DNA of 64,000 bases from Methylococcaceae bacterium (GCA_013141155.1 JABFRM010000145.1:6042-70041), one strand, 5' to 3'; positions 54,168 to 58,647 are shown, counted from the first letter of the stretch. The notes: a model not told the origin generated them from the sequence alone. Program-made: numbers and translations.

Positions 54168-54224
54168 GTTTTTTTTAAAAAAAGAAGGTTACACAGATAT
54201 ATAAAATTCAACGTATTGTACGTC

Positions 54225-56456
54225 TTAAAATTTCGATTTAGCTTTTAAAACCTCAAGCAAATAGCGACGTTTCGGTTCTTCATAAGCAAGTTTATCTGGA
54301 CAGCTAAGTGATTCTTCCACTTTGATTTTAAGCTTATTATATTTTTCTTGCGAATGTTCATTATTCCCTAGGTCAAATATATAGATACAAAAGGCAATAG
54401 TCACTTCAACGTAATACATCTGCTGCTCAGGGTTAGGGTAATATAATTTAGATAATTTCATTACATATTTTTTAACGATGCTTTCATCATAATATTCTTT
54501 ATTTTCAATAAGTTTAATGAATATAAATAATGACCCTATTAACGCATAAATCTGCCGTTTTAAATGTATTGAAATAGGTGTTTTATCAGCTGCATACCCT
54601 TCTAATTTTTCTGCTAACTGAAGCAAGGTATTCCATGTATCCTCTAAACTGGGTATTTCTGGTAATTCCTCATCAACACAAATGGGCTTAAAGTACCCAT
54701 AGTTATAGTAAACAACAAATTGATGGCACCGCTCCACCTCAAAACGAATTGCCTCTAAAGTATTAGATTCATCATTATGCTGCTGTCGCCAAAGAACATT
54801 TGCTTGCTCTAGCTTATCAAAAGCCTCTTTAAATTGTTCGCACTTCGTATAGTGATGCCGAAGTGCAACCGCATAAAGATAGTACGCTTCAGGCGCAATA
54901 GTGGCATCTTCCTCAGCATAGTCTGCCGCACTGTTACAAAAGCTTTTAACTTGCTCCCAAGCACTAGCCTCGGCCGCAATCAATGCACAGATCAAATACA
55001 TTTTCCCTTTAGACAGCGGCTCTCCCGTTTGTAACAAACTAAAGATAGCGGCATTATTTCCTTTATCTAATTCCTGACGAATAGCTTCAAATAACCCATC
55101 GGGTTGCCCGTTTCTATAATACGACACTAAAGGCACGGGTAAACGATGCCAACCTTGCAAACGTTCTCCTCTATGCAATTTCAATGCCTCTAAGACGTGC
55201 ATATTTGTCATGCCAATGCTTAAATAGACCCTTTCAAAATTAGCATAGGTTGATTCCCATTTTGCTTTTAATGACGCTTGAATTTTAACTAGTAATTCTT
55301 CCGATTCGCCAAGAATTTTTTGTAACCAAAGTTTAAGCTTCTCTTCTTCATTTTGAATACTTTGATTTAATGCGGCAATTTTAAAAAAATCATTGCGCAT
55401 CGCCGTGATTTTTTCATCTACATGCCCACAACATTGATAACTTGCCCCTCCTCCCTTAACGATCGCTTCTAAATTGGCAATATACATGACTTCGTTGCCA
55501 TCAGCATTCAGTAAAAGTGGCATAAAAAACTTGTCCAACATCTTGCTATAAGCATCCAGTTCTTTTTGTAAAACACTTTTATCATCTAAATAATTAAACA
55601 ACTTGGTGAAAGAACGATATATGCGCGGATGACGTATCGGAACTTCTGCCTTTATATTGGATGATTCAGCCGCAATAACTTTATGGATGCCTTTATCGCC
55701 GGTTATAAAATACAATTTTTGTTTACTTCCCGCTGCTTGTAATGCGCGATTAACTAAAGCAACATAAGCCAAAGTTTTGGCATCATCAAGAATTCTATGT
55801 AAAGGCCTGTCTGGACGAACTTTGCGCAGCTTTTCATACCACGGTTTACTCTCAAGATATAAAGCGGCTAGTGATGGTTTATCATGAAACCACGCTTGGC
55901 TTTGAATATCAGCAAGCTTGTTACTGTCTACAAGCTCACCAATCCGCTGTATTTCTGTATCGGAATCAGTAGCCGATGCGTCATCTTGCACCAAATAACG
56001 ACACAGCGTGTCGCAGTGCCTTAACATGCCCGCGACTAATTCCTCTATATCCAGTGTTGTTTGGTAGGCTTTAAACAACGCTTCTAGCTCAGCTAATTGA
56101 CCCTGAGCTACTTTATGACCCTCGTGATGATCCTTCCATATTGCTTCAAAAATATAAGTAAATTCAGTATAAAGTGTCGGCAATGTTAGTAAAGGCTCAT
56201 TGGCTAAATGCTTGAAGATATACTCCGCTAAACTGTAAGCGGAAAATTTTAAGTCTTTCAGCTTTTCATCGTCAAAAATCTGAGCATATTCCCGCTTACC
56301 TTCAGGATTTGAATAAAGGATGATGACGTTATTATCAACCGCATAAAAAATATGCCCACCCGCTTTTTGATACGCCAAATCATCCAAGACAATTTTTAAA
56401 TCCAATCTAATTTGGGCGAGATTTTTATAATACTTTTGTAGTTTTTTAGTAGACAT
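54225..56456 (-). CDS. Hypothetical 743-aa cytoplasmic protein with PIN-like acidic motifs in the N-terminal ~270 aa and a helical-repeat (TPR-like) C-terminal half
   Basis: It is a long AT-rich ORF and the last gene of a 4-ORF operon. Motifs are IFYAVDNNVIILY (D41), RILDDAKTLAYVALV (D224/225) and LYFITGDKGIHKV (D254). There is no signal peptide, TM helix or P-loop. Confidence 0.6.
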   Translation of the reverse strand: MSTKKLQKYYKNLAQIRLDLKIVLDDLAYQKAGGHIFYAVDNNVIILYSNPEGKREYAQIFDDEKLKDLKFSAYSLAEYIFKHLANEPLLTLPTLYTEFTYIFEAIWKDHHEGHKVAQGQLAELEALFKAYQTTLDIEELVAGMLRHCDTLCRYLVQDDASATDSDTEIQRIGELVDSNKLADIQSQAWFHDKPSLAALYLESKPWYEKLRKVRPDRPLHRILDDAKTLAYVALVNRALQAAGSKQKLYFITGDKGIHKVIAAESSNIKAEVPIRHPRIYRSFTKLFNYLDDKSVLQKELDAYSKMLDKFFMPLLLNADGNEVMYIANLEAIVKGGGASYQCCGHVDEKITAMRNDFFKIAALNQSIQNEEEKLKLWLQKILGESEELLVKIQASLKAKWESTYANFERVYLSIGMTNMHVLEALKLHRGERLQGWHRLPVPLVSYYRNGQPDGLFEAIRQELDKGNNAAIFSLLQTGEPLSKGKMYLICALIAAEASAWEQVKSFCNSAADYAEEDATIAPEAYYLYAVALRHHYTKCEQFKEAFDKLEQANVLWRQQHNDESNTLEAIRFEVERCHQFVVYYNYGYFKPICVDEELPEIPSLEDTWNTLLQLAEKLEGYAADKTPISIHLKRQIYALIGSLFIFIKLIENKEYYDESIVKKYVMKLSKLYYPNPEQQMYYVEVTIAFCIYIFDLGNNEHSQEKYNKLKIKVEESLSCPDKLAYEEPKRRYLLEVLKAKSKF

Positions 56457-56466
56457 GATTCAAAAT

Positions 56467-56940
56467 TCACGCATAAATAACTATTTGATCATTAGGTGGA
56501 TTTTGATGCCTTTCATTAATCGGCTTAAAAACCCTGTCAATCTTATCAAGTAACTCAATCAGCGTATCTTTTTCTTTTTGAGAAAAATCCTCTATTCGTT
56601 TATTTTCAAAATATTCATTTAACCACCAATTAAGCTGATAATTATCTCCCCATTTATTTTTTGAAATCTTTGATTTTTGCTGACCACAACAAATATAATC
56701 GCTTTCCTTGCCTCGCATAAATGTAATCGCCGATTCCTTATCAAAAAGCATTCTAAGCAACCACCGCTCATTATCAATCTCATTAGGCTTTAAAAGTACT
56801 ATATCTGGAATGTATAAATCCGGCAAATACCGCACCAAATTCTCCAAATCCATTTTGTCAACTAACCCTAATGTCAACGAACGAACATAAAGCTGATCTT
56901 CTTTTTCCAGTGCTAAAAAATAACTTCTGCTGCTCAGCAT
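56467..56940 (-). CDS. Hypothetical protein (157 aa as called, possibly the C-terminal part of a frameshifted or fused gene with 56858..57493)
   Basis: This ORF overlaps the upstream ORF by 83 nt in a different frame. An alternative ATG at 56853 lies 4 nt after the upstream stop. I recognise no motifs. Confidence 0.5.
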   Translation of the reverse strand: MLSSRSYFLALEKEDQLYVRSLTLGLVDKMDLENLVRYLPDLYIPDIVLLKPNEIDNERWLLRMLFDKESAITFMRGKESDYICCGQQKSKISKNKWGDNYQLNWWLNEYFENKRIEDFSQKEKDTLIELLDKIDRVFKPINERHQNPPNDQIVIYA

Positions 56941-57493
56941 ATTCAGATAATTTTTTTGGATGTACTTTAAGTAAATTTAAAAAAATTATTGGAATATCCG
57001 TTTTATCAAAGTAATCTGGTTTTTTAAGCAATTGCTCAAATTCTTGAGTTACTAAAGGCTCTTCCATCCAACTGGCTAAGATATTAATAACATAGGCTCG
57101 AGATCGTAAAGCTTCTTTAGATTTAGCCACTTTCAGGAATCCCTTTAACCGAAAAAATATAGGCTGTAGTGCATCTGCAACCTTAAGGGTTTTTGCCAAC
57201 CAAACCATGTTACGCAAAACGCCTTGCCATTCATCGACATCGCGGCAACGGGTAATGCCATGCGCCAACCCTTTTCTAAACCTTGTTTGTGTCGGTGCAT
57301 CGAGCTTTTCATAAACCGCTGCCAATTGCACGCCAATATCTTCATGATGCGTTAACAATAACCCAATAGGCGTAAATGGAATGTTTTTAGGCGGTGATTC
57401 CTCCCAACAACGCAATCCTTCTAACAACCAATCGGCTAAATCATCTGCTGACATTTTGTTAAGTGTGCCCAAATATTCGTTTGGTATTTTCAT
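56858..57493 (-). CDS. Hypothetical all-helical protein (211 aa as called)
   Basis: Its ATG lies 5 nt after the upstream stop. The last ~20 residues (STGKRRSALCSFVDIRVS) look out-of-frame, whereas the overlapping frame reads naturally. Confidence 0.55.
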   Translation of the reverse strand: MKIPNEYLGTLNKMSADDLADWLLEGLRCWEESPPKNIPFTPIGLLLTHHEDIGVQLAAVYEKLDAPTQTRFRKGLAHGITRCRDVDEWQGVLRNMVWLAKTLKVADALQPIFFRLKGFLKVAKSKEALRSRAYVINILASWMEEPLVTQEFEQLLKKPDYFDKTDIPIIFLNLLKVHPKKLSEYAEQQKLFFSTGKRRSALCSFVDIRVS

Positions 57494-57498
57494 AACTG

Positions 57499-58422
57499 TT
57501 AAATGTTATCGTTAAGCCAAGTAACGAATTCAGACCGCAGATCAAATGTGCCAACGAATTCATTCTGCATATTCAATATAGCAGCTTCATCGTTAGGATC
57601 AACCCATTCAGCATGTTCTGTGGTCAAACCAATCGCTTTTAATTGCCCATTTGCTTTATAGAGTGGAACTTGCCTCGCAAAAAGCTCAGACTCACCTGTT
57701 CTTATACCCTCTTTATACGACCGTTGTAAATACACAGTACTTCCCCATCCCTCATTATCTGCTGGATTGTTATGTGCTTTAAAACGCTGATGTGCTTCGG
57801 CTTCAATAAAAGTCGGAGTTGCTTTATTATTAGGGTGAATTGCTGTTGCCAAAAAACAAAGCTCAAATAAGGCAACATTACTATTAAAATGAACCAGCCC
57901 CAATATATCACGCACTTGATTTGCTAGATTTGCGGGCTTAGCATGTCTTAGTTTTTCAATCCAATCAGAAGGAGTAATCCAAAATTGTCCGTCGTTATAG
58001 TCTAAATACCCATAAGTCCCGTCATTTAAAATTTTGGGATGTTCGTCAAATGCAGCGGCTACTTTAGTAAAAAAATGTTCCTCATATTCTGCACTATTAC
58101 TAACTTCAATGCCCATTTGATTCAATTCGATTATATTCAAATTTTTATGTAAAATTTCCCAACGAATAATGGTACTTACCTTATCTGGCATTTGCGGCTT
58201 AGCTTTATGTTGAAAGCGATATTTAACTTCTTTATCGGCAATGTTATGAATAAGATTAATAATTTCTTCTACATAAATTGGAGCATAGCTAATATAAGCA
58301 GCTTTCCATGCTTTTAAAAAACTAATCAATAGATCACGTTCAATATGTTCATGATCATAGGCGCATTGAATATTTGCCAAGACAATTCGCCCTAAAGGCT
58401 CTTTATTTAAAGTTGAAAACAT
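57499..58422 (-). CDS. Hypothetical 307-aa cytoplasmic protein, first gene of the unknown operon
   Basis: It is an uninterrupted ORF with no TM helix or signal peptide. I find no recognisable catalytic motif (checked for P-loop, HxK PLD, HNH, HExxH). Confidence 0.6.
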   Translation of the reverse strand: MFSTLNKEPLGRIVLANIQCAYDHEHIERDLLISFLKAWKAAYISYAPIYVEEIINLIHNIADKEVKYRFQHKAKPQMPDKVSTIIRWEILHKNLNIIELNQMGIEVSNSAEYEEHFFTKVAAAFDEHPKILNDGTYGYLDYNDGQFWITPSDWIEKLRHAKPANLANQVRDILGLVHFNSNVALFELCFLATAIHPNNKATPTFIEAEAHQRFKAHNNPADNEGWGSTVYLQRSYKEGIRTGESELFARQVPLYKANGQLKAIGLTTEHAEWVDPNDEAAILNMQNEFVGTFDLRSEFVTWLNDNI

Positions 58423-58602
58423 CCACCCCCCGATTCATTGTTTACAGCGCCTTAAATCAGTTCAGTATTTCAATTGCAGTAAACTATTTGCAAAGCGTTA
58501 CTTTTTTGAGTCATTCTTGGAAAAACCAGTGCCGCATAGTATCAGACACAGGTGGCAAGGTCTAACACTTGTTAACAGCATATTCCCTGAACGACTGATG
58601 CC

Positions 58603-58636
58603 GGTGAATGATAAAATGAGCGATTTATCATTCACC
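58603..58636 (+). promoter_or_regulatory. Perfect 13-bp inverted repeat (operator or 5'-UTR hairpin) abutting the AEC transporter start
   Basis: GGTGAATGATAAA (58603-58615), N8, then TTTATCATTCACC (58624-58636). It ends 12 nt before ATG 58648. Confidence 0.4.
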
Positions 58637-58647
58637 TCCCAGCATCA

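Follow-up and report, generated by a model that had tools for sequence, protein, structure and literature searches.

A stretch of 64,000 nucleotides (nt) from a Methylococcaceae bacterium (GCA_013141155.1, JABFRM010000145.1:6042-70041), referred to below as the window, contains a block of four open reading frames (ORFs) on the minus strand, located between pyrF and a gene for an AEC-family transporter. The block comprises gene A, gene B in two pieces and, last, gene C, whose product of 743 amino acids (aa) is the main subject of this study. The original prediction had described this protein as a PIN-like head followed by a TPR-like C-terminal half, leaving its strand unstated and overlooking its membership in a three-gene cassette. 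The ORF at 54225–56456 proved to be real and lies on the minus strand. The features of the locus are listed here together with the evidence for each.

54183–58647, no strand assigned: island of low guanine–cytosine (GC) content carrying A-B-C, between pyrF and the AEC-family transporter gene (composition, absence from congeners)
57499–58422, minus strand: gene A, 307-aa protein, fold not recognised (alignment, co-occurrence with C)
56858–57493, minus strand: N-terminal fragment of gene B, 211 aa, ended by a frameshift (B profile match, 6e-104)
56467–56940, minus strand: C-terminal fragment of gene B, 157 aa, +1 frame, own start codon ATG at 56940 (B profile match, 4e-41)
54225–56456, minus strand: gene C, 743-aa PIN-like/helical/TPR-like protein P0001 (ORF call, 380 homologous representatives)
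55581–56360, minus strand: predicted PIN-like nuclease domain of gene C, residues ~33–292, with D41, E98, D225 and D254 (model with a predicted local distance difference test score (pLDDT) of 89, HARP and VapC as PDB neighbours, conservation)
55812–56159, minus strand: helical insertion in the PIN-like domain, residues ~100–215 (~115 residues), with the short strand 3 (181–183) and the nearly invariant W206 (DSSP of the model, comparable insert in PIN_8 by hhalign)
55137–55580, minus strand: middle helical linker of gene C, residues ~293–440 (long helices in the full-length model, low confidence)
54228–55136, minus strand: TPR-like alpha-solenoid of gene C, residues ~441–743 (model, Foldseek, conservation, weak Pfam TPR matches in a few members)

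A word-indexed protein search with the gene C protein retrieved two relatives only, with 56% and 41% identity, and a 60-sequence profile brought no further ones in the same kind of search. An exhaustive HMMER search with a profile of the close relatives recovered 380 family representatives (clusters at 50% identity, E ≤ 1e-3), most of them 740–830 aa long and aligned end to end. Residue conservation was counted across 134 full-length homologues aligned with MAFFT, which are 18–27% identical to the window protein. The first motif, IFYAVDNNVII, is found at residues 36–46 and has the family consensus Y-A-V-D-T-[DN]-[VI], while RILDDAKTLAYVALV and LYFITGDKGIHKV occupy residues 221–235 and 248–260, respectively, all three at the positions given by the original prediction. 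Of the aspartates that it had proposed as the acidic PIN residues, D41 is invariant (134/134) and D254 is retained in 101 of the 134 homologues (75%), with S, A or T in the rest. For the pair D224/D225 the proposal stands for D225, which is invariant (134/134), and falls for D224, which is present in 31 of the 134 sequences and thus unconserved. The second acidic residue of the PIN layout, E98, had been overlooked; it is a glutamate in 129 homologues (96%) and an aspartate in the remaining five, and together with D41, D225 and D254 it makes up the classical PIN acidic quartet. Further conserved positions in the head are N236 (96%), W206 (99%), R275 (99%) and P277 (93%). The motifs in the gene C protein thus go beyond a chance resemblance. 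The C-terminal half contains a polar cluster of its own (W500, E523, R533, R571 and E575), kept in 97%–100% of the homologues, with W500 and R533 being invariant.

The N-terminal 300 residues were modelled with AlphaFold from a 31-row alignment (26 added homologues plus the proteins from three loci), resulting in a mean pLDDT of 89.1 and a predicted template modelling score (pTM) of 0.84. The model contains five strands, at residues 35–40, 89–91, 181–183, 246–251 and 274–275. D41 directly follows strand 1, E98 is part of the helix following strand 2, D225 lies at the beginning of a long helix (219–241) ahead of strand 4, and T252-G253-D254 comes directly after strand 4. We take this placement of the acidic residues relative to the strands to be the canonical VapC-type PIN layout. 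The helical insertion that had been proposed between the PIN motifs is present in this confident model, where its helices span residues 93–213. The top six Foldseek matches of the model in the PDB are HARP chains (8ssg and 8ssf; E 0.03–0.19, probability ≤ 0.97, target-normalised template modelling (TM) score 0.39–0.48), and the VapC structures 5ecw and 3dbo appear lower in the same list. In the viral structure library, the model had no significant match. When compared by hhalign, residues 37–257 are collinear with positions 1–220 of PIN_8 (PF18476), with the four acidic motifs in register and the helical insert at the same place; in the alignment to a VapC profile derived from 30 PF01850 matches, D41, D225 and the TGD motif align in order only once the insert is spliced out. 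The model thus gives good support for a predicted PIN-like fold of the N-terminal domain. Both the fold check (model and Foldseek) and the conservation check left the idea of a PIN-like head standing, with the corrections to the acidic residues described above.

For the remainder of the protein, we used a full-length AlphaFold model built on a 3-sequence alignment, in which residues 1–440 have a pLDDT below 50. Residues 440–743 form a stack of 13 helices with a pLDDT of 70–88, and the nearest PDB folds of this stack, found by Foldseek with weak E-values (7e-3 to 8e-2), are the TPR proteins NprR (4gpk), KLC1 and LGN. The TPR-like nature of the C-terminal ~300 aa, which the original prediction had deduced from sequence periodicity, is supported by these weak matches. 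Pfam TPR matches occur in 2–3 of 60 gene C members, all of them below the cut-off. From this architecture we infer a possible sensor role for the TPR-like half. We also considered a HEPN reading of R533-H534. H534 is only 56% conserved and none of the positions 535–548 reaches 70%, so that an Rx4-6H motif is lacking; Pfam matches to HEPN and Las1 came from single stray gene C members, and this reading was dropped.

The genes upstream of C are part of the same conserved unit. Both close relatives have a block of three genes, and across the family the order is A-B-C, with proteins of ~310, ~340 and ~750 aa. The operon structure was surveyed with iterated A and B profiles in twelve loci of eleven genomes from Pseudomonadota, in contigs from Thermoguttaceae and from metagenomes, and in seven long contigs. 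Wherever sufficient upstream sequence was available, A and B directly precede C, and the stop and start codons overlap or abut, except in one of the long contigs (L092); the other six of the seven long contigs have the normal A-B-C arrangement. A-B-C is a translationally coupled operon that is conserved across phyla. In place of a normal A, the divergent cassette of L092 (7057–9938) starts with a gene for a 558-aa protein with faint Pfam matches to FAD/NAD oxidoreductases, its match to B is weak, and a SLATT/DUF4231 gene is found directly after C.

Gene A and gene C also co-occur almost without exception. Among 401 evenly sampled Pseudomonadota genomes, 15 (~4%) contain C and 14 contain A, with 13 genomes in common. 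The distribution is sporadic, C being present in only 2 of 61 close relatives, and further members of the gene C family come from Planctomycetota, Cellulophaga, Krumholzibacteria and Magnetococcales. In the window, the island carrying the cassette has a GC content of 0.32–0.41, compared to mostly 0.42–0.50 in its flanks, and in two genomes of the same genus only 85–120 bp separate pyrF from the AEC transporter gene, as opposed to ~4.4 kb in the window. Composition and synteny thus mark the window cassette as a recent horizontal insertion of ~4.4 kb. No integrase, tRNA gene or transposase adjoins the island in the window (54168–54225 and 58423–58647).

Gene A has invariant positions at R171, L174-G175-L176, P203-T204, R213, G227, E246 and G265, and with this pattern of invariant R, LGL, PT, R, G and E it is probably an enzyme or a ligand-binding protein. 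An ADP-ribosyltransferase-like reading of its R...G.T...PE motifs was rejected, as the spacing of 16–17 residues is too short and the tools gave it no support. Conservation of gene B is weak: one position is invariant and five more are nearly so. In the relatives, the gene is a single frame of 329–346 aa (~340 aa). In the window it is represented by two overlapping fragments (overlap region within 56858–56990, minus strand). Compared to the relatives L002 and L015, 2 nt are deleted between 56931 and 56930, at a site outside homopolymer runs. The split is presumably due either to a mutation that shifted the frame or to a mistake in the assembly, as a programmed frameshift was judged unlikely with the deletion being off a homopolymer run and the relatives having a single frame. 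In a metagenome contig (L096, 7411–10001), an ISL3-family transposase is inserted inside gene B, with A and C intact. Gene B is therefore disrupted in two independent loci, by a 2-nt deletion in the window and by the ISL3 insertion in L096, and in both of them A and C are intact.

The cassette proteins lack matches in the family libraries searched. For the gene C protein, a Pfam scan at E ≤ 10 gave two sub-cut-off matches only (E 0.039 and 0.13; 14.3 and 12.6 bits compared to cut-offs of 28.1 and 27), the PADLOC, NCBIfam and PDB sequence scans gave zero matches at the same threshold, and a PHROG scan found nothing. Sequence and profile searches of the PDB with the cassette proteins yielded noise only, and neither gene A nor gene B had a match in Pfam, PDB, PADLOC or PHROG searches. 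Pfam detected no DNA-binding domain in A, B or C. When 60 diverse gene C members were compared to PADLOC-DB v2.0, only isolated stray matches were obtained (E > 1e-3), and A, B and C of the close relatives had no match in this database. The cassette is not described in the literature that we found by full-text search. That the original prediction did not recognise gene C as a described family thus agrees with the scans of Pfam, NCBIfam, PADLOC and PHROG, none of which returned a match near its cut-off. The PIN-like domain of gene C appears to be too divergent for the existing Pfam PIN families.

The known systems closest to the gene C protein contain PIN domains. Its best structural neighbour is HARP (PDB 8ssg/8ssf), a protein-only RNase P of the PIN_5 type. 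HARP has a PIN-like metallonuclease core with an inserted helical element. It is a standalone protein of ~170–190 aa that processes tRNA 5' ends, whereas the gene C protein has a much longer insert and a 450-aa helical/TPR extension and is part of a mobile three-gene cassette; identity between the two is 9%–12%. PIN_8 shares the linear plan of gene C, consisting of an hhDTNV strand, a P..va.E helix, a helical insert of at least 100 aa, a GD...W helix and an hhhTDD motif, but the sampled PIN_8 proteins are in shorter open frames of ~260–520 aa. VapC (PF01850) has the same D/E/D/D acidic constellation and strand order. VapC toxins, however, are ~130 aa long, lack the insert and are paired with a small DNA-binding antitoxin, in contrast to the 743-aa gene C protein and its partners A (307 aa) and B (~340 aa). 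The source genome contains at least 20 PF01850 matches at E ≤ 1e-8 (e.g. C13:7336-7710 and C277:2348-2710), four of them with internal stop codons.

The combination of a PIN domain and TPR repeats also has a precedent among predicted counter-invader proteins. The TPR-GreA/B-C-PIN conflict proteins, mostly encoded by standalone genes, consist of a variable N-terminal effector, TPR repeats, a GreA/B-C domain and a C-terminal PIN domain (Kaur, Iyer, Burroughs & Aravind 2021, eLife e70394, PMC8195603). The gene C protein resembles them in that a divergent PIN domain is joined to TPR repeats, but its PIN domain is N-terminal, its TPR-like part is C-terminal, and it has two obligate partner genes; neither a GreA/B-C domain nor an effector domain was detected by Pfam in the gene C protein and 60 members of its family. 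By analogy, gene C may resemble PIN-nuclease effectors with repeat sensors in its mode of action.

Defence or conflict genes are located within 10 kb of the cassette in six of ten contexts annotated with Pfam, as a raw count. The first of these contexts contains a type III CRISPR-Cas operon, the second SLATT/DUF4231 with DUF4145, and the third a GAAD/GASH/DO-GTPase/GAP1 system with DUF4062. XhoI, a Cap4 nuclease, HipA, an integrase and conjugation genes are found in the fourth, DndB, a BglII restriction-modification pair and ParE in the fifth, and Mrr/NA-iREase, an AAA-S8 pair and SNase in the sixth. These neighbourhoods are suggestive of an association between the cassette and defence genes. 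In a Methylobacter metagenome-assembled genome (L001, 10828–16503), genes for a Lipase_3 protein and a 1403-aa Lipase_3/patatin protein follow the cassette downstream at a distance of a few kb, past a histidine kinase/response regulator pair.

Most likely, the gene C protein is of the effector-sensor type and combines a metal-dependent nuclease head, interrupted by a large helical insert, with a TPR-like binding domain. Taking together the reality of the gene, its conservation, the confident N-terminal model, the operon structure, the co-occurrence with A, the insertion and mobility of the cassette, and the defence neighbourhoods, we lean, with modest conviction, towards gene C encoding a PIN-like metallonuclease in an undescribed mobile three-gene anti-phage or conflict cassette, its nuclease activity, substrate, participation in a complex and immune role being predicted features. 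It is possible, but short of likely, that A-B-C is by itself an undescribed anti-phage system, in which the effector would represent a new branch among PIN-like nucleases and the two partners would have folds or activities new to defence. Under the metallonuclease model, D41, E98 and D225, plus D254 in most members, would form the catalytic core of C. The three proteins would assemble into a complex, in which the TPR-like half and/or A and B would keep the nuclease inactive. Upon detection of a foreign protein or nucleic acid, the TPR-like half and/or A-B might release or aim the nuclease, and the PIN head could then cleave RNA or structured nucleic acid using Mg2+ or Mn2+, which would stop phage replication or kill the cell. 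One possibility within the anti-phage version is that the gene A product is an enzyme producing or sensing a signal. In the window, the cassette may be impaired, because B is broken by the 2-nt deletion.

Several observations weigh against the metallonuclease and conflict interpretation. All Foldseek PDB matches of the N-terminal model are above E 1e-3, with TM scores of 0.4–0.5 on the target, and the hhalign comparisons are not significant for either the VapC profile (P 0.006) or PIN_8 (P 0.07). No PIN family, including PIN_8, appears in the hmmscan of the gene C protein at E ≤ 10, nor is one among the 25 Pfam families listed for 60 members at E ≤ 0.1, and D254 is lost to S, A or T in 25% of the homologues. 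Four of the ten annotated contexts contain no defence genes, the window itself has no recognised ones, and among the large neighbouring genes sampled at ten genome loci there are housekeeping or signalling genes but no defence genes. To these points are added the uncontrolled count of defence neighbours and the unrecognisable folds of A and B, which reduce the sensing and regulation steps to guesses.

Some of the same observations could be accommodated by an N-terminal domain that is PIN-like or Rossmann-like in shape without being a nuclease, in which the acidic residues would bind a metal or nucleotide and the cassette would have an accessory role in RNA maturation or signalling. The marginal structural E-values of the model, the absence of the fourth acidic residue in a quarter of the members, and the housekeeping or signalling genes around many cassettes would all be in line with this. 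We nevertheless give it a small chance, as a D-E-D triad at the exact PIN catalytic positions, preserved across ~20% identity, is a signature of active PIN nucleases, and the distribution in ~4% of genomes as well as the horizontal insertion speak against a housekeeping role. Known active PIN families, too, conserve the fourth acidic residue least. An equally improbable alternative is that the cassette is an addiction module similar to toxin–antitoxin systems, which stabilises mobile DNA rather than providing phage defence, with C as the PIN toxin and A and/or B as antitoxins. The classic VapC toxins are PIN nucleases, the source genome has at least 20 PF01850 matches, the A, B and C genes are tightly coupled, the cassette is located on an inserted island, and in some contexts it lies near toxin genes (HipA, ParE) and genes for conjugation. 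However, the proteins are large (300–800 aa) and have no Pfam DNA-binding domain, unlike type II systems. The independent disruptions of B next to intact A and C genes argue further against B as an essential antitoxin: if B restrained a constitutively active toxin, its loss would be lethal, yet it was disrupted twice, whereas antitoxin loss is not tolerated in VapBC systems.

Whatever the family does elsewhere, the copy in the window might also be a decaying remnant with no present function. Compared to the two relatives, the 2-nt deletion leaves gene B as ORFs of 211 and 157 aa, but A and C are full-length and have kept all conserved residues, and the second B fragment has its own ATG in the overlap, so that a split B could still be made. 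Moreover, the source assembly is a draft of 354 contigs, in which the frameshift may be an assembly error. We therefore regard decay of this copy as rather unlikely.

With regard to the source organism, the cassette marks a recent horizontal insertion beside pyrF in which one gene is partly damaged. At the family level, the cassette proteins remain without a match in family libraries even though gene C is represented by 380 clusters at 50% identity distributed over several phyla. D41, E98 and D225 provide a clear set of predicted catalytic candidates. If A-B-C is indeed an immune system, it would add a new branch of PIN nucleases and two new partner proteins to the catalogue of bacterial defence.

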